Source: Patescibacteria group bacterium
GTDB taxonomy: Bacteria; Patescibacteriota; Patescibacteriia; Patescibacteriales; UBA12465
Assembly (NCBI GenBank): GCA_023229115.1
Contig: JALNZW010000002.1
Span: 17,513 to 81,512 of the forward strand
Direction: 5' to 3'
DNA: 64,000 nucleotides
The notes under the pieces are model-generated. The model did no database searches and had not been told where the DNA came from. It was given only the letters and a program-made list of their open reading frames with translations. The position numbers were made by a program, and so were the translations under genes. Each line of letters begins with the position of its first letter. Position 1 is the first letter of the stretch. Positions 2,216 to 56,189 of the stretch are shown here, one piece after another.

Positions 2216-2674
2216 CTATTCAGCAACGTGAATAATTCCTCCTGGGGTTGCTTGCTTAAGACCAGCTTCTAAACCACCAGTTTGACCACCTAAACAAAAG
2301 TTGATTACATAAGATCCGTATCCAGAAGTACCAACTTGAGTTCCAGTTGCAACATAAGTATAGTTATTTTTAGTTCCGTCACAAACACCATCAGCTGGAG
2401 TTGGAGCAGTTGGAACAATGTTCATGTAAGTGATTCCATTGGTAGCAATAGTTCCTCCGGCTGTTACATTAGTTGTAAGAGGGTAGTATTGATTGTCATT
2501 AAAGTACAATTCCAATGCTGTTTGCATTTGACGAACGTCAGCGATTCTTTTTGCATCTCTAGCATTCTTTCTAGCTTGTTGTAAAGCAACAACAGCCAAA
2601 GTTGCCAAGATACCGATGATGGCAATAACCACCAATAACTCGATCAAGGTAAAACCTTTTTTCTTTGTGTTCAT
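2216..2674 (-). CDS. type IV pilin (candidate major pilin), 152 aa
   Basis: Canonical class III leader and N-terminal helix MNTKKKG|[28 protein letters not shown]. Short globular domain ending LKQATPGGI; own strong terminator. Confidence 0.85.
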
Positions 2675-6438: not shown

Positions 6439-7659
6439 CTATTTCTTAGTTATTCTCACCTGTTTTATAACTTTATTCTCAAGTTTTTCTACCACACAAA
6501 CAAACCTGTCATTTTCGATGGTTGTTCCTTCGGTTGGAATTTTTTTTATAGTCTCTAAAACAAAGTCAGCCACTGTTTCTAGATCATCTTCTGATAAAGT
6601 AATGTTTAAAAAACGATTAATATCACGACACTCAACCGCCCCAGAAACAACTATTTCATTTTTACCAATTCTTTTTATAAAATTATCATCAATATCATGC
6701 TCATCAACTATTTCACCCACCAACTCTTCGATAATATCTTCTAGGGTTATAATACCCTCTGTTCCGCCATATTCATCCATCACAACAGCAATATGTATTT
6801 TTCTTTTTTGAAATTCTTTTAAAACACTATTAATTAACATCTGTTTCGGTACAAATATTATTGGTCGAATTAATGACTTAACCATCTCGCCCTCTTTATT
6901 ATTCCTGAAGGCCAACAGAACATCTTGAGCATGCACAAAACCCAAAACCTTATCAATAGATTCTTCGATAACCAAACAACGAGTTATACCATATTTTTCA
7001 ATTTCAATAGCCGTTTTTTCAATAGAATCAACCTCCTTAACATAAACAACCTCGACCCGAGGAGTCATAATATCTTCAGCTGAAATATCGTTAAATTTAA
7101 AAAGTTTTTCAATCATCAAACCTTCATTTTTTTCAATTGTTCCTTGTTGAACTCCAGCCATAGCTAAAGCTTTTAATTCTTCTTCACTAATTTCTTCTAT
7201 TTTATGACTACCAACTAAAATATTAGTTATTTTTTCCATTAACCAAATGATTGGCAAGAAAAACTTTTTTAAAAAAGAAATAAAAGGAGCAAATTGACGA
7301 GACAACCAAGGGGCATGAGAAGAGGCAAAAGACTTGGGTACTATTTCACCAAAAATTAAAATAATTATAGTCATTATACCAGTGGTTAATCCAATAACAG
7401 CTGAATCAAAATATTTAGCAAAAATAACAGTAGCCAAAGAAGCGGCGGCAATATTAACAATATTATTACCAATCAAAACTGTTATAAGTAAAGATCTGGG
7501 ATTTTCTTTCAACTTTTTAACTGTAAGAGCATTTTTCTTCTTAGCTTCAATCATGGCTACAATTTTAGCCTCACTTAAGCTTAAAAAAACAACTTCAGCC
7601 GAAGAAAAAAAGGCTGATAAAACTACAAGAATAAGTAAAAACAGAAGATCAGGGTCCAT
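6439..7659 (-). CDS. CNNM/HlyC-CorC family transporter (DUF21 + CBS pair + CorC_HlyC)
   Basis: 406 aa; four N-terminal TMs, a CBS region (DIMTPR..), C-terminal GGTEGIITLEDIIEELVGEI. Confidence 0.85.
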   Translation of the reverse strand: MDPDLLFLLILVVLSAFFSSAEVVFLSLSEAKIVAMIEAKKKNALTVKKLKENPRSLLITVLIGNNIVNIAAASLATVIFAKYFDSAVIGLTTGIMTIIILIFGEIVPKSFASSHAPWLSRQFAPFISFLKKFFLPIIWLMEKITNILVGSHKIEEISEEELKALAMAGVQQGTIEKNEGLMIEKLFKFNDISAEDIMTPRVEVVYVKEVDSIEKTAIEIEKYGITRCLVIEESIDKVLGFVHAQDVLLAFRNNKEGEMVKSLIRPIIFVPKQMLINSVLKEFQKRKIHIAVVMDEYGGTEGIITLEDIIEELVGEIVDEHDIDDNFIKRIGKNEIVVSGAVECRDINRFLNITLSEDDLETVADFVLETIKKIPTEGTTIENDRFVCVVEKLENKVIKQVRITKK

Positions 7660-8887: not shown

Positions 8888-8921
8888 ATAATATAATTAT
8901 AGCAAATTTATCAGTCAAAAC

Positions 8922-8968: not shown

Positions 8969-11122
8969 TTATTTTAAATTAATAGAATCATCAATTGTAG
9001 ATCTTATCGCTCTGACTTTATTAGAGCTTCCCTTATAATATTCTGGAGGAGTTTCAGATAGAGCCTTAGCTTCATTTATAAATTTAAATCTTTTTGAATA
9101 AGAAGGCCTAATACCAGCTACCGCCGAAGAAACATCTAATTCCGTAGAAGACCAATAATAACTATTATAAATACTTAAATTAGTTAAAAGATAGTTCAGT
9201 TCATTGCTTGAGGGCAAATACCAGTCACTATAACCTCCACTCTGATAATCACTTGCTATTTGAGCAGCACTAGAATTACCACAAGGAAGAGACAATATAT
9301 TTGAAGTGTTGCTTGTCCCATCCACAATCGAAAAAGCTTCGGTAAGAACACCATCACAACCCCAAGAAGTTCCAGCACTTTGATCACTTGTTGCCGCTAC
9401 AAAAATTTTAGCTTCATCAGCAATTGTATACCCTTTATAAAAAACAACTCCCCCTCCGCAAGAATCACCTATTTCATTTAAATCCGTACATTCAGTATCT
9501 TGAACAATTGGCTCTTCGCCATCCTCATCTTCAGAGTTAGAAACCAATCTTCTTATAACCAAGGCATTCATATTCTCATTGTCTGGCGATTGATCTTCTA
9601 AAAACATTAAATAGATAATATTATTATCTATTAACATTGAAATGCTAGAAAATATTTCACTATAGGAAGCAATCGGTCCAACATTTTCCCAGGAAGAACC
9701 ATTAAATTTTTTTACCTCCACTAAACCAGGGTCAGTGGCTGGATTAGTAGCTGAGACGTTAACACCATTTTTATAGGCCACATAAGGAACTTCATTATAA
9801 ATATAAAGAGCTAATTGAGAGGCATGACCAACAGAAAAAACTCCATCATTTGGTCCAAGTGGTTGCCAAGAGGTTCCATTAAATTTTAAAGCTGTACCTC
9901 TTTCGCCAACACCTCCGCTTGCAACATCTACACCACCTTGGTAAACAACATATAAATCACCATTATTACTTATTTGAAAATCAGCATGACCAGAGTTTTC
10001 TGAATGAAGTATTTCTATTGGACTACCAACTTGATTCCAAGTAGTTCCATCAAATTTTTTAACCACCCATTTAGGTGACCCAGAATCACAATCTCTTCTA
10101 TACATAGTATAAAGCTCTCCATTATGAATTCTAAGAATTGGCTTGGTTCCTTTTTGACCATTGGAAACAGTTGGCCCAACTTGCTCCCAAGCACCATTTA
10201 CAAATTTGACTACATAAGTTTCCTCGGTAGAAGCTTTGTCCTTGTAAGCCACATAAGGAACATTATTATAAACAGCTAGAGAAGGGTGGCAAGCTATATC
10301 AAAAGAAGTATATTCACCTAAAGACTCCCAACTACCATTTACAAATTTTTTAGTTATAATCATTTGTGAATCATAATTATCTTTATAGGTTATATATGGC
10401 ACTCCATTGAAAACCTGCATGGAAGATTTTCCTCCACTTTGACTGTGAATTGTTGACCCTAAATTAGCCCAAGAATTACCACTTGATTTAGCCATTTTTA
10501 AATAACGACTTTCTGAACTATCTCGATAGGAGGCATAAAGTTCATTATTATAAACATCTAGATTAGAGCTACAACCCCGCTCAGATAAGACTGGAGATCC
10601 ATAGGTTTGCCAAATACAACTTGATGAATCAGCTAAACAATTATTTTCAGTTGAACCATCATCATCTCCCCCTCCTTCAATTCCGCAATCTTGATTTAAA
10701 ATGCCTCCTGGAGTCAAACACTTAAGACCAGAATCTAAATTGTTAGAATCTTTTCCTAAACAAAAAGACAAGAGATAAGTACGATCATTATTTTGAGGTT
10801 GATAGATATATGAGTTTTGTTCTTCGGTGCAAGCACCATCAGCTACAGCCGGAGCAGCAGGAATATTTTGCATATAAATACCATCAATCCCGGCAATTTG
10901 GCCAGAATTCCATTCTTCTTCCGTTGGATAACGATTATTTTCATTAAAAAATAATTCTAAAGCAGTTTGCAGTTGTTTAACATCTGCTAAGCGCTTAGAG
11001 TCGCGGGCGCGAGAACGGGCTTGTTGTAGGGCTACTACGGCTAAGGTGGCTAGTATGCCAACGATAGCTATTACTACCAAAAGCTCGATTAGGGTGAAAG
11101 CTTTTTGTTTTTGTTTGAACAT
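8969..11122 (-). CDS. type IV pilin-like protein with beta-propeller-like repeats and C-terminal DUF1566/Lcl-like lectin-fold domain (717 aa)
   Basis: N-terminus MFKQKQKA|[28 protein letters not shown] and a full pilin domain to ..LKCLTPGGI (aa 1-141). Six to seven ~50-aa repeats of YNNxPYVAYKD..VKKFNGxxWxxVG (aa 186-526, nt 9545..10567). C-terminal GGGVVFYKG..GGYSDWYLPSSNEL..YYWSSTE..KVRAIRS (nt 8999..9466). Confidence 0.85.
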   Translation of the reverse strand: MFKQKQKAFTLIELLVVIAIVGILATLAVVALQQARSRARDSKRLADVKQLQTALELFFNENNRYPTEEEWNSGQIAGIDGIYMQNIPAAPAVADGACTEEQNSYIYQPQNNDRTYLLSFCLGKDSNNLDSGLKCLTPGGILNQDCGIEGGGDDDGSTENNCLADSSSCIWQTYGSPVLSERGCSSNLDVYNNELYASYRDSSESRYLKMAKSSGNSWANLGSTIHSQSGGKSSMQVFNGVPYITYKDNYDSQMIITKKFVNGSWESLGEYTSFDIACHPSLAVYNNVPYVAYKDKASTEETYVVKFVNGAWEQVGPTVSNGQKGTKPILRIHNGELYTMYRRDCDSGSPKWVVKKFDGTTWNQVGSPIEILHSENSGHADFQISNNGDLYVVYQGGVDVASGGVGERGTALKFNGTSWQPLGPNDGVFSVGHASQLALYIYNEVPYVAYKNGVNVSATNPATDPGLVEVKKFNGSSWENVGPIASYSEIFSSISMLIDNNIIYLMFLEDQSPDNENMNALVIRRLVSNSEDEDGEEPIVQDTECTDLNEIGDSCGGGVVFYKGYTIADEAKIFVAATSDQSAGTSWGCDGVLTEAFSIVDGTSNTSNILSLPCGNSSAAQIASDYQSGGYSDWYLPSSNELNYLLTNLSIYNSYYWSSTELDVSSAVAGIRPSYSKRFKFINEAKALSETPPEYYKGSSNKVRAIRSTIDDSINLK

Positions 11123-11141
11123 ATTGTTTTATTACTACCAA

Positions 11142-11244
11142 TTGTCATCCCAGCAAGCCACTTCCTGTATGGCAAAATCTTGGACACAGCTTGGTTTGTA
11201 AAGATTAAACCGCTTCTGTCATCCCAGCGTAAGCTGGGATCCAG
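11142..11244. repeat. palindromic repeat units a (degenerate, 11142..11190) and b (11216..11244)
   Basis: Unit b = CTGTCATCCCAGC-GTAA-GCTGGGATCCAG. Unit a has the same left arm, a long loop and a decayed right arm. Same family at 11349, 34350, 55329, 55402, 55556 and 55595. Confidence 0.8.
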
Positions 11245-11298
11245 CTTGGTTAGTAAAAATAATTGAATTATATAAAATTACTAAATTAATTTATTTAA

Positions 11299-11327
11299 AT
11301 TATACTTATAATCCCTTTGTCAACCAA
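11299..11327 (-). promoter_or_regulatory. sigma70-like promoter of the 717-aa pilin gene
   Basis: Minus strand TTGGTT(11327..11322)-N17-TATAAT(11304..11299). Aligns without gaps to TTGTTT-N17-TATAAT upstream of the second cargo pilin. Confidence 0.55.
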
Positions 11328-11348
11328 TAGAGTACTTAGGTGTTTATT

Positions 11349-11377
11349 CTGGATTCCAGCTTTCGCTGGAATGACAG
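11349..11377. repeat. palindromic repeat unit c (inverted orientation relative to b)
   Basis: CTGGATTCCAGC-TTTC-GCTGGAATGACAG. Confidence 0.8.
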
Positions 11378-11415
11378 GGAATAATTCTATTATAACAAAA
11401 AATATAATTAAAAAA

Positions 11416-15918: not shown

Positions 15919-16077
15919 ATTTTTACAAATAACAGTTTATTTCTTGAAATAAACAATTATTATTAATTAATTTTTAAAATCTTAATTACTATAAGTTAAT
16001 TATATCACAAAAAACAAAATTAGTCAATAGCTATTTTGTTTAATAAAAAAGCCTTAAAATTACTAAAGGCTTTGTTT

Positions 16078-24460: not shown

Positions 24461-24533
24461 AAATATAAAAAATTAATTAATAATCAGTTTTTTTATTATA
24501 ACAAAAAAATATAAAAATAAAAGCCTTGTTTCT

Positions 24534-28156: not shown

Positions 28157-28206
28157 ATAACTTCATTATAACAAAAATTTAAAAAAAGACAATACTTAAA
28201 CAGAAT

Positions 28207-34278: not shown

Positions 34279-34349
34279 ATAAAATATTTTAGTCCCGTCA
34301 TTCAAATAAATCACCTTCTAAATGATTCAATAAATCCAATTTACTTAAA

Positions 34350-34411
34350 CTAGATCCCAGCTTTCGTCGCGTAAACTCGCCTTGCTCGTACGCAACTCGC
34401 TGGGATGACAG
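34350..34411. repeat. palindromic repeat unit d with 37-nt loop insertion
   Basis: CTAGATCCCAGC-[37 nt]-GCTGGGATGACAG between gdh and trxB. Confidence 0.8.
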
Positions 34412-34425
34412 GGAAAGAGTATTAA

Positions 34426-35652: not shown

Positions 35653-35763
35653 ATATTTATAAAGGATTATTAAGATTATTAGGAAATTTAAGATATTTAG
35701 GATAATTAAATCTAAGCTTTAAAAATCTTAATAATCTTAAAAATCATAAAAACCCTAAATATC

Positions 35764-36099
35764 TTATTTATTTAAGTGTGCATCAATATCATTTTTTAAA
35801 GAATCCTTTGACTTCATGCCGATAAACTCAGCAATAACCTTTCCATCTTTAAACAATTTCATATTAGGAATACTTTGAATTTGATATTCAATAGCTAATT
35901 CTTGATTAGCTGAATCTTCAGTGTTAACTTTAATAATTTTAACTTTTCCCTCTAAATCACCAGCTAATTCATCTAAAATAGGTGACATCATTTTACAAGG
36001 CATACACCATGGTGCCCAAAAATCTACTAAAACTGGAATATTTGATTCTAAAACTTCTTTAGCAAAATCATTTTTGCTCACATCTTGTGCTTTACTCAT
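35764..36099 (-). CDS. trxA: thioredoxin
   Basis: 111 aa, VLVDFWAPWCMPCK active site (CMPC variant of CGPC). Confidence 0.9.
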   Translation of the reverse strand: MSKAQDVSKNDFAKEVLESNIPVLVDFWAPWCMPCKMMSPILDELAGDLEGKVKIIKVNTEDSANQELAIEYQIQSIPNMKLFKDGKVIAEFIGMKSKDSLKNDIDAHLNK

Positions 36100-37427: not shown

Positions 37428-37589
37428 TTAAGCCAAAACAAGTATTCAGAACAAACCAACACTACTCAAAAAAATCAAGAAGTAATTATATTGTTATTTT
37501 TAAATAAATAATATAATATAAAGCAAGGTGTTTATATTTCCTAAATATCTCAATAATCTTAATAATCATAATAATCCTAATAAAATAAT

Positions 37590-54127: not shown

Positions 54128-55276
54128 TTATTCAGTTCTCAGGCAACGAACAAAAAAACCTAAGGTCTTAGAGTTATTAACACGACTAATTGCAGAATGA
54201 GAAGAGCTCAAATAACGAGACCAAGCACCAGCAGAATAAATAGAAGATGACCAAGACCAAGTAACACTACCAATATTTGAAAAAGAGCCATCTCCGATTC
54301 GGCAGCCAGACGGTAAGGCTGAAAAATAGCTTTCTTCACAACCTAAGACATCGTTGCACCAAGCATGAGTACTTTCACTTTTTAAAGCGTCGCCCTCATT
54401 TGTCCCTGTATAGCCCACTGTTACGATGTCTTTCGGAAATTTTGTTTCACAATCAATATTTCCTAATAATACACAAACTGATCTTTCTAAGTCAGTGAAT
54501 TCGTCATGAGTTGGTACATGCCAACCTGTTGGGCAAATATATCCTTGATCTACCGCATACCAATTATATAGCACACCATAAGTAGAATAATTAGCTTGAG
54601 TTTTAGCCGTATTTACATCACTGCCATTATAATCATAAACACCATAACCTGGTAGTGAATTAATTCCTTGGGTTTCGAACTCTGTATTACTATGAACAGC
54701 TGGAAGATAGGCTAGGTTTTTGGCAAACCAACATTGTGTTCCTATTTGAACTGTTGGGTAAATATTACCATCTCTGGTGTCTGTAAAGTCATCTCCACAG
54801 GTCCAAACTGGAGTTTCTTCTCCGCCTAACTCACTACTACCAAAAATTATTCCACCTGGCGTCATTTGTTTAGCTCCTTCAGGTAGGTCTGATACTTGTT
54901 TGCCAGTACAGAAATTAATAGTGTAAGTAGCTCCATTATTTTGAGGAATATAAATATAAGTATTAGAAGAATCCAAACAATCACCATCAGCTGGAGTAGG
55001 GGCGCTTGGAATATTCTGCATAAAAATTATATTTTCAGTAGAAGAGCCAATAAAGCCTTGATTCCACTCTTCTGTTGTGGGATATCTCCCATACTTATTA
55101 GCAAATAATTCCAGAGCTGTATGTAATTGTTTCATATCAGCCATTCTTTTAGAGTCTCTAGCGTTTTGTCTGACTTGTTGTAAAGACACAACGGCTAGAG
55201 TTGCAAGGATACCAATAATGGCTATTACCACCAAGAGTTAAATAAGAGTGAAAGCTTTCTTTTTTTGTTTAAACAT
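54128..55276 (-). pseudogene. type IV pilin fused to a FISUMP-type (Fibrobacter succinogenes major paralogous) lectin-fold domain, interrupted by in-frame TAA at codon 13
   Basis: ATG 55276: [29 protein letters not shown].. with TAA at 55240..55238 where paralogs have GAG/GAA (Glu+5). Pilin domain to ..AKQMTPGGI. C-terminal CGDDFTDTRDGNIYPTVQIGTQCWFAKNL..YGVLYNWYAV..CPTGWHVPT..FFVRCLR (nt 54137..54799). Confidence 0.8.
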
Positions 55277-55328
55277 AGGTTTTTATTTGTTTTTTAAATG
55301 TCAGCGCAACGAGCGAAAACTAACTCAA

Positions 55329-55450
55329 CTGTCATCCCAGCGAGCCACATTTTACGTGGCGAAAGCTGGGATCCAGCTTAGTTAGTAAAAAATAATCTCC
55401 TCTGTCATTCCAGCGCCATGCCTAAGGCAGGCAAGCAAGCTGGGACCCAG
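55329..55450. repeat. palindromic repeat units e (55329..55376) and f (55402..55450)
   Basis: e = CTGTCATCCCAGC-[GAGCCACATTTTACGTGGCGAAA]-GCTGGGATCCAG; f = CTGTCATTCCAGC-[24 nt]-GCTGGGACCCAG. Each is followed by CTTAGTTRRTAAAAA, as after unit b. Confidence 0.8.
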
Positions 55451-55505
55451 CTTAGTTGATAAAAATAAATATACTGTATAATGATTATTAAATTAATCTA
55501 TTTTA

Positions 55506-55534
55506 ATTATATCTATAATTCTTTTTTTAAACAA
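55506..55534 (-). promoter_or_regulatory. sigma70-like promoter of the pilin-FISUMP gene
   Basis: Minus strand TTGTTT(55534..55529)-N17-TATAAT(55511..55506); homologous position to 11299..11327. Confidence 0.55.
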
Positions 55535-55555
55535 TACAGTGCTTAGGTATTTATT

Positions 55556-55617
55556 CTGGATTCCAGCTTTCGCTGGAATACAAGGGGCGTGGAGGCCAGC
55601 TTACGCTGGAATGATAG
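55556..55617. repeat. palindromic repeat units g (55556..55579) and h (55595..55617), inverted orientation
   Basis: CTGGATTCCAGC-TTTC-GCTGGAAT, a 15-nt spacer, then GCCAGC-TTAC-GCTGGAATGATAG. Confidence 0.75.
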
Positions 55618-55661
55618 ATAGCAATAAGATAATTCTATTATATAGAAAAAAATTGACTCAT

Positions 55662-56189
55662 TTAATCCATGTGTATAATTTCATCGGGATTATATTTTTG
55701 CTTTTTGCCAAAAACCGCTATACCATAATTAAAAAATTTATTATTTTTTTCTTTTGCGTGCCATCTGATTTCAAGCTCTTCATTTTCTAAAAAAGTTCTT
55801 TGGAGAGAATAGGGATCCTCAAAAATAATTTTATTAGAATCATAGCCAATAACGACCACCCAATGGCCATCATTAAAATCATTTTTATATTTAATTTCTT
55901 TTGAATCTTTCCAGGCCTGTAAAAGAATAATAACTGGAATCTCTCTATCAATATAGTCTTTCAAAATATTAATTGTCATTTCCTTAGCTTCAAATTTTAG
56001 CTCAAACTTATTTAAAACATCCTGTATTTTTTTTATTGATGTCCCTTCCTTTGAATTATTTTTTGCATATTTGATTAAAAGCTCTTCGCTAATTTCCACT
56101 CCATAATATTTTAAAACCGCCTGAAGAGATTTGGCTCCACAATCCCACTCATATGTTTGTCTTAATTCGGGAAATTCTAATTGCTTCAT
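55662..56189 (-). CDS. stand-alone C39-like papain-fold cysteine peptidase domain protein
   Basis: 175 aa; Q..YEWDCGAKSLQAVLKYYG (oxyanion Gln + catalytic Cys) and DGHWVVVIGYD (catalytic His); no signal peptide or ABC-transporter fusion. Confidence 0.7.
   Translation of the reverse strand: MKQLEFPELRQTYEWDCGAKSLQAVLKYYGVEISEELLIKYAKNNSKEGTSIKKIQDVLNKFELKFEAKEMTINILKDYIDREIPVIILLQAWKDSKEIKYKNDFNDGHWVVVIGYDSNKIIFEDPYSLQRTFLENEELEIRWHAKEKNNKFFNYGIAVFGKKQKYNPDEIIHMD

Follow-up and report, generated by a model that had tools for sequence, protein, structure and literature searches.

Neisseria-type hairpin repeats arrayed around the putative promoter region of type IV pilin genes in a Patescibacterium

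Introduction

Repetitive extragenic palindromic (REP) sequences of the CGTC-1 family, which carry CGTC, TGTC or CCTC tags and include longer-loop variants, have been equated with the Neisseria repeat dRS3 (Di Nocera et al. 2013, PMC3733652), and dRS3 has since been extended to a 28-nt motif named NTS, alongside which a degenerate 'Ssn-related motif' (SRM) was defined (Chenal et al. 2025, PMC11893778). SsnA, a small GIY-YIG protein, binds and cuts this hairpin solely as single-stranded DNA, the motif often stands on both sides of ssnA genes, and in N. meningitidis the SsnA/motif pair lowers the integration of transforming DNA that bears the motif (PMC11893778). In the neisserial intergenic mosaic element (NIME) arrays, dRS3 units (ATTCCC-N8-GGGAAT) flank RS spacers of 50–150 bp; these arrays adjoin divergent surface-protein genes and have silent pilS loci inside them (PMC1797815). 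Here, we analyse a 64-kb stretch of a Patescibacterium genome (the window; G+C content 30.7%) and describe, directly upstream of one of its type IV pilin genes (positions 11123–11415), a small array of hairpin units that we assign to this repeat family.

Experimental characterization of these repeats comes only from Neisseria and Wolbachia, and the present analysis places Ssn/NTS repeats in an ultra-small, AT-rich Patescibacterium, directly ahead of type IV pilin genes. Type IV pili are considered the organelle by which bacteria of this kind take up DNA and attach to their hosts. The genes of the window form a set typical of a Patescibacterium (among them those for RpoB/C, RNase J, tmRNA, DprA and several type IV pilins), and DprA together with the pilins provides a context of competence. 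A first-pass annotation had described the region as a promoter cassette retained upstream of exactly two pilin genes, and all the coordinates and motifs it gave for 11123–11415 were found again in the sequence. We consider that the region is probably an SRM/NTS (CGTC-1 REP) array around a pilin promoter, and that the two loci are alike through a shared and exchanged pilin front end, not through a switch or a transposon.

The hairpin array and its repeat family

The array comprises three hairpin units (c, b and a) and the AT-rich spacers between them, listed here with window coordinates and strand in the order in which the pilin gene reads them:

11389–11397, minus: P1, extended −10 type motif TGTTATAAT, directly 5′ of unit c
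11349–11377, minus: unit c, SRM/NTS-type (CGTC-1 REP) hairpin CTGTCATTCCAGCGAAAGCTGGAATCCAG; exact SRM pattern; −14.7 kcal/mol, z −4.8
11245–11348, minus: AT-rich spacer ('core'), 104 nt, 19% G+C, containing P2
11299–11327, minus: P2, TTGGTT-N17-TATAAT, inside the core
11216–11244, plus: unit b, SRM/NTS-type hairpin; exact SRM pattern; −17.1 kcal/mol, z −4.8
11191–11215: spacer between units b and a, 25 nt
11142–11190, plus: unit a, long-loop with a nested inner hairpin, decayed; same orientation as b; z −0.9
11123–11141: leader between unit a and the ATG (at 11122), 19 nt
8969–11122, minus: pilin 1, the gene served by the cassette, a type IV prepilin of 717 residues with a large C-terminal part (Pfam N_methyl, E 9e-9)

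Unit c is forward on the sense strand of the pilin and begins 38 nt past the stop codon of a UvrD/PD-(D/E)XK gene, and unit b, within the presumed 5′ leader, is oriented opposite to both c and the pilin gene; forward units are thus found on both strands, c on the sense strand and b and a on the other. G+C content runs through the array as a wave, with 46–60% in the units and 11–34% in the spacers, which measure 25–105 nt. As 29-nt inverted repeats, units c and b pair with each other in the minimum-energy fold and enclose the core.

By their sequence, the hairpin units (TGTCATYCCAGC-loop-GCTGGRATCCAG) are identified as CGTC-1 REPs, that is, as extended Neisseria dRS3 (NTS) and Ssn-related motifs. 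The SRM pattern HGTCWYN(0-2)YYVSBRHN(0-5)WNVSBRGN(0-2)RNCYNB, taken from PMC11893778, is matched by c (11349–11376, minus strand) and b (11217–11244, plus strand), two matches where 0.04 are expected in simulated sequence; the long-loop or decayed units (a, the unit at 34350 and unit b of the second copy described below) fail it in its strict form. Units c and b differ from Neisseria NTS CGTCATTCCCGCGMAVGCGGGAATCYRG at three positions, two of which make up a compensatory stem pair, A–T here and C–G in Neisseria. They share with SRM/NTS the 28-nt oriented hairpin with a 5′ (C/T)GTC tag, an 8-bp stem ATTCCxGC, a 4-nt loop and a 3′ CCAG, the directionality given by non-palindromic flanks around a semi-palindromic hairpin (5′ CGTC/TGTC, and a C right after the stem), and the clustering beside surface-protein genes. 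The same units read TGTC-ATTCCAGC-GAAA-GCTGGAAT-CCA(G), which is the CGTC-1 definition of a TGTC tag, an 8-bp stem starting from AT, a 4-nt loop and a CCA tail, and as in CGTC-1 they are dispersed, multi-copy and mostly arranged as inverted dimers, with longer loops also occurring. What sets them apart from the described SRM/NTS systems is the host, a Patescibacterium with 31% G+C from a phylum not mentioned in PMC11893778, and a window without ssnA.

As a whole, the array resembles NIMEs in that hairpin units alternate with spacers in a G+C wave, unit number varies between close relatives, and the adjacent genes are unusually divergent and mosaic. It differs in having 3–5 units, compared to the long arrays of Neisseria, and in that we identified no phage recombinase or silent-cassette system here. 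Since the literal dRS3 pattern ATTCCC-N8-GGGAAT is absent (the units read ATTCCA-N8-TGGAAT), whereas the architecture and the G+C wave are the same, we call the array NIME-like and not a member of the NIMEs.

Units of the same kind lie upstream of gonococcal pilE, and a gonococcal pilE construct was the only match when the literature was searched by the repeat sequence and its translated forms. At gathering thresholds, Rfam matched only tRNAs and tmRNA in the window and offered no family for the unit itself; a permissive search gave one meaningful match, the c–core–b doublet to WsnRNA46 (RF02625; 42.2 bits against a gathering threshold of 65.3, E 1e-7). WsnRNA46 is a Wolbachia small RNA made of an inverted doublet of such units, and c–core–b aligns to its model positions 20–133 with both arms, but with a score under the gathering threshold and with an unrelated spacer. 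The element is thus a known one, in a phylum and a gene context for which no description was found in the literature searched.

To place the units in a wider context, we scanned one genome per species for CTGTCATYCCAGC-N(1-31)-GCTGGRATCCAG and found the unit in at least 118 stretches from Patescibacteria, Chloroflexota, Alpha-, Beta- and Gammaproteobacteria, Nitrospirota, KSB1, Ignavibacteria, Myxococcota, Wolbachia and others. Whereas CGTC-1 was reported from Proteobacteria, Chlorobi, Bacteroidetes, Spirochaetes and Thermotogae (PMC3733652), the family as found here therefore includes Patescibacteria and many further phyla. Among the matches listed, nearly all stretches share an identical 28-mer and a GAAA-like loop, and neighbouring units in other phyla form 39 inverted pairs compared to 7 direct ones. 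In roughly 1 Mb of related Patescibacterial loci, the units are essentially confined to sites of the type seen in the window, namely pilin loci and the interval between the genes for glutamate dehydrogenase (GDH) and a thioredoxin-reductase-like protein (TrxR).

A gene for a GIY-YIG protein of about 90 residues recurs in 6 of 119 loci with the unit pattern (the 118 listed stretches of the genome scan and one viral contig); the protein is invariant at Y6, Y17 and E64, the positions that were changed in the mutants of SsnA (PMC11893778). Two inverted units bracket this gene in members of two unrelated phyla, an Ignavibacterium (L012:1332–1864) and a metagenome-assembled genome of the Acidiferrobacterales (L003:5083–5510), further unit-bearing loci with an Ssn-type gene are L061 and L084, and the Ssn-like proteins include two named from Patescibacteria (P0299 and P0317). 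We do not claim this association as new, because the NTS–ssnA–NTS architecture was published in 2025; it was recovered here independently.

Two pilin loci share more than the repeats

The first-pass annotation had matched 11123–11415 block for block to the region upstream of a second pilin gene (55277–55661), and this match is confirmed, AT-rich core included, over about 290 aligned nt (73.7% identity over 255 nt, E 4e-42, blastn). The non-palindromic core aligns on its own (82% over 72 nt, E 5e-6 within the window; 84% over 103 nt without gaps), and the similarity between the loci is therefore not confined to the palindromes. It begins just past the stop codon of the upstream gene and extends into the pilin coding region. 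The third pilin gene of the window (2216–2674) has no comparable region upstream.

The second copy keeps the element order of the first and adds a degenerate unit, which brings our count to five units instead of the three per cassette originally described. Its parts, the gene that it precedes and the third unit-bearing site of the window are the following:

55277–55661, minus: cassette copy 2, 100% identical in 7 contigs from 5 samples
55590–55616: extra unit, degenerate
55556–55583: unit c, head mutated
55506–55534: P2, motif kept
55403–55450: unit b, decayed, z −1.2
55330–55376: unit a, strong hairpin
54128–55276, minus: pilin 2, with a Fib_succ_major C-terminal domain and an in-frame TAA at 55238–55240
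34282–34423, minus: insertion of about 140 nt, a long-loop SRM unit (34350–34410) and an AT-rich segment, between the stop codon of the GDH gene and the TrxR-like gene

Three intergenic sites in the window carry units, and the unit half-site is found 16 times where 3.8 are expected, a number reached in 0 of 100 shuffles. Both cassettes fold far better than their shuffles (z −5.1 and −7.7), with strong hairpins at c and b of copy 1 and at a of copy 2 (z about −4.8 to −5.0), while one unit per copy folds no better than shuffled sequence: unit a of copy 1 (z −0.9), whose left arm is mutated relative to copy 2, and unit b of copy 2 (z −1.2).

In pilin 2, the in-frame TAA replaces the conserved Glu+5 codon (MFKQKKKAFTLI*LLVV...) in 7 of 7 contigs from 5 samples, and the orthologue in a sister species is intact and differs over its first ~42 codons. 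Pilin 2 is likely to be a silent copy or a pseudogene that has become fixed. Recoding of the TAA is ruled out because ordinary genes of the window, such as the UvrD-like gene, end in TAA.

Gain, loss and exchange between relatives

An exact look-up of pilin 1 returned no record, and relatives were reached through its neighbouring proteins. In the same species, across at least six samples, cassette 1 was found in 2 contigs and cassette 2 in 7, all of them collinear and with 100% identity. In the sister species, where the flanking genes have 85–95% nucleotide identity and pilin 1 is more divergent (74–89%), all three unit-bearing sites differ:

Locus 1, after the UvrD-like gene: in the window 293 nt with P1, c, core, b and a; in the sister 160 nt with the 3′ half of a long-loop unit c and a core running into the ATG, and no b or a
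Locus 2, after the C39 peptidase gene: in the window a 385-nt cassette and the pilin start MFKQKKKAFTLI*; in the sister about 70 AT-rich nt and an intact pilin start MLNQEKNGF
Between the GDH and TrxR-like genes: in the window the insertion of about 140 nt with the 34350 unit; in the sister contigs L120–L122 the genes stand 5 nt apart; contig L123 has the insertion

The insertion between the GDH and TrxR-like genes resembles a unit, an AT-rich spacer and the remnant of a second head. Further away, a relative with 86% UvrD identity has the pilin after an 87-nt spacer with no units and no clearly alignable core, and at 75% UvrD identity the pilin is absent.

A third pilin locus, L228, also has the cassette. 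It comes from the metagenome that yielded the sister species, sits downstream of a gene for a DUF3048 protein and contains TGTTATAAT, unit c in a long-loop form, the core and a single a-type unit. The unit c remnant of the sister species goes back to this long-loop form. The first-pass annotation was thus right to place the cassette upstream of cargo pilins, but not in limiting it to exactly two.

Mosaicism at these loci extends beyond the repeats. Across four cassettes, the core has 75–88% pairwise identity, about the same as the first 60 coding nt, and the core of copy 2 is identical to that of the sister's locus 1 at 53 of 53 nt, whereas the orthologous copy 1 has 80% identity to the latter. 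At locus 2, compared with the sister, the C39 gene is 94–100% identical; then come a replaced cassette and ~42 replaced codons at the pilin start, 300 nt with 99–100% identity and a C-terminal lectin-like domain with 53–71%. A further pilin, P0112 (L230:2670–4334), combines a 5′ half of the DUF3048-locus pilin with a 3′ part of the C39-locus pilin, as judged against L228 and L219: it equals P0102 over residues 1–150 and, bar two substitutions, the sister's pilin 2 from residue 43 to the end. Its flanks, DUF3048 on one side and DHH/PheS on the other, likewise belong to two different loci. L230 may be a genuine rearrangement by way of the shared pilin module, or else a false join made in metagenome assembly. 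As read from these alignments, units are gained or lost between relatives and both pilin loci have undergone mosaic recombination, with the orientation of the core held constant.

For locus 2, either direction of change (gain or loss) fits the data, because C39 peptidase homologues at 73–78% identity, tried as an outgroup, are not syntenic (one locus being archaeal) and because both N-terminal variants of the pilin homologues, MFKQK.. and MLNQK.., are common in the family.

Two further observations concern the surroundings of pilin genes in relatives. At 67% UvrD identity (L143:5203–5455, also L145), the syntenic pilin leader carries different G+C-rich palindromes of the CCACGT...ACGTGG type; hairpin repeats from more than one family seem to accumulate in the pilin leaders of this group. 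In an unrelated Patescibacterium (L031:4975–5048), a three-pilin cluster is preceded, at a distance of about 250 nt, by an inverted unit doublet nested within an outer inverted repeat of 17 nt.

Candidate promoters

The proposal that the AT-rich core contains a promoter seems reasonable, given motif enrichment and conservation in copy 2 and in the sister species. Judged by counts against shuffles, TTG-N20-TATAAT is found nine times in the window compared to 2.4 expected, mostly just upstream of genes, and the P2 motif is kept in copy 2 and in the sister. A standard consensus promoter scan did not report P2, which it missed because the −35 hexamer matches at only 3 of 6 positions. P1, just 5′ of unit c, is a plausible second candidate promoter by its sequence: TGNTATAAT is found 12 times in the window compared to 5.9 expected, mostly ahead of genes, and P1 is kept at the third pilin locus. 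Several TGNTATAAT motifs lie close to start codons (8896–8904, 15999–16027, 24495–24503, 28165–28173 and others), and the distance of only 9 nt between one of them and the ATG of MgsA is a hint of very short or leaderless mRNAs.

Alternative explanations

The presence of a segment with a promoter-like motif between inverted repeats had suggested an invertible, fimS-like switch, in which a recombinase encoded elsewhere would flip the core between c and b and turn the pilin on or off. We regard this as very improbable: the core has the same orientation in 9 of 9 independent assemblies (2 of copy 1 and 7 of copy 2), as well as at locus 1 of the sister and at L228, Pfam scans and gene tables bear out the earlier statement that the window encodes no recombinase, and the repeats belong to a general dispersed family in which each unit is itself palindromic. 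A mobile promoter, also put forward initially, would make c–core–b (11216–11377) an element like a REPIN or a miniature inverted-repeat transposable element (MITE) that inserted upstream of the pilins and brought a promoter with it. That c and b are inverted and pair around the core, that doublets are the usual arrangement of the family, the sub-threshold WsnRNA46 match (42 bits, E 1e-7), the appearance of the GDH/TrxR insertion and the relative at 86% UvrD identity, with neither units nor a clearly alignable core, would all agree with it, as would the inverted hairpin doublets of REPIN/RAYT systems and MITEs and their variable presence between strains. However, homology continues past both supposedly terminal units, to the left across P1 and to the right across the leader and into the coding sequence, no target-site duplication is seen in the flanks, and in the related loci covering about 1 Mb the core is restricted to regions upstream of pilins. 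The sister core, moreover, persists with half of c and without b, a metagenome scan with the unit-c/core junction CCAGAATAAANACCTAAGNACTNTATTG gave no match, the tag is TGTC and not GTAG, and Pfam scans and gene tables hold no RAYT/Y1 or other transposase. We therefore consider insertion of a mobile doublet unlikely.

Somewhat less remote, though still doubtful, is a dedicated structured leader in which the hairpins, as RNA, control the pilin mRNA through RNase J-dependent stability, transcription attenuation or translation. In the genus, the cassette precedes the pilin gene at three paralogous loci, the window includes an RNase J gene, the syntenic pilin leader of the distant relative holds other G+C-rich palindromes and, were P1 used, no more than about 10 nt would separate unit c from the 5′ end, a position from which a hairpin could protect the mRNA. 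The predicted fold of the leader with b and a is modestly more stable than that of its shuffles (z −2.1), with the ribosome-binding region and ATG unpaired, and the units may make a weak contribution to mRNA structure. Against such a role, the sister keeps the orthologous pilin and the same core without b and a, one unit per locus is decayed, no locus-specific compensatory changes are seen, the gene behind copy 2 has a premature stop, and the identical unit type stands between unrelated genes and across many phyla. Because the units are dispersed, turned over and decayed, the array does not appear to be the fixed, retained control module that had been envisaged; the units are in this respect an ordinary dispersed repeat, whereas the whole cassette is not.

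We thus favour, as probable, a small mosaic array of oriented hairpin repeats and AT-rich spacers that would have been built up around a native pilin promoter region. The repeat-bearing intergenic region, together with the signal peptide and the initial ~40 codons, would form one paralogous module, duplicated and swapped by recombination among at least three pilin loci and related species, with units gained, lost and decaying inside it; the two copies in the window match because this pilin front end is a shared recombining module. The units would act as DNA and not as a promoter switch: in genomes with an Ssn GIY-YIG nuclease such hairpins are cut in single-stranded DNA, and in Neisseria this cutting limits and shapes the integration of transforming DNA beside variable surface-protein genes. 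For this organism, both Ssn action and any influence on transformation, transcription or the stability of mRNA are inferred by analogy. Unit c, by its position behind the upstream stop codon, may also serve that gene as a 3′ end hairpin and insulator, and units b and a may lengthen and structure the pilin leader while leaving the ribosome-binding region uncovered.

Several points weigh against this explanation. The strict SRM pattern fits only 2 of the eight or nine units, the rest being long-loop or decayed, and a tblastn search found no Ssn-like gene within the window or the related loci. The L230 recombinant could be an assembly chimera, and the change at locus 2 fits a gain here as well as a loss in the sister, both N-terminal variants being common. 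Assemblies are consensus sequences in which a minority orientation would be hidden, and the presence of the cassette at three pilin loci, with a core identical at 53 of 53 nt in one comparison, would also fit selection for regulation.

A more far-reaching analogy, which we hold to be rather improbable, is a Neisseria-like variation system in which hairpin cutting, in single-stranded DNA that is entering the cell or being replicated, would set the ends of recombination tracts, so that during natural transformation pilin front-end modules (promoter and signal peptide) and cargo domains would be swapped among loci and strains and pilins switched on or off (as with the TAA of pilin 2). The break points of the pilin mosaics fall at or beside the array, the same association that lies behind the proposal that NIME/NTS arrays shape surface-gene exchange in Neisseria, and should the organism have an Ssn nuclease, it would offer a natural and independent test of this proposal. 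In annotation, such hairpins are to be labelled SRM/CGTC REPs and not riboswitch-like leaders, terminators or switch repeats.

Further observations in the window

The unit loops at 34350–34410, L228:2707–2777 and L141 (~7005–7035) share an insert of about 32 nt, AGTYGCGTAYGAGCRARGCGAGTTTACGCGAC, which is itself a hairpin. Its occurrence at unrelated loci is, on sequence grounds, the mark of a long-loop subfamily, and nested loop hairpins occur in units of other phyla too. The GDH/TrxR insert also brings an AGAAGG ribosome-binding-like motif and alternative in-frame GTG/TTG starts for the downstream gene.

In the sister species, the C39 peptidase gene upstream of pilin 2 (window 55662–56189; L219:5001–5438; L224) is interrupted by a stop codon or a frameshift. 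Among the full-length homologues closest to this peptidase (about 75% identity) is one from a DPANN-like archaeal contig with eIF-6, PTH2 and Hjc as neighbours, which suggests transfer between domains.

Lastly, 9-nt phased AT-rich repeat runs of the TTAAGATTA and TAATAATCT types occupy two intergenic regions 1.8 kb apart (35654–35767 and 37531–37589). Between the runs, which are partly inverted to each other, lie genes for a thioredoxin, a small protein resembling metal-sensing repressors and a 254-residue protein with no Pfam match.

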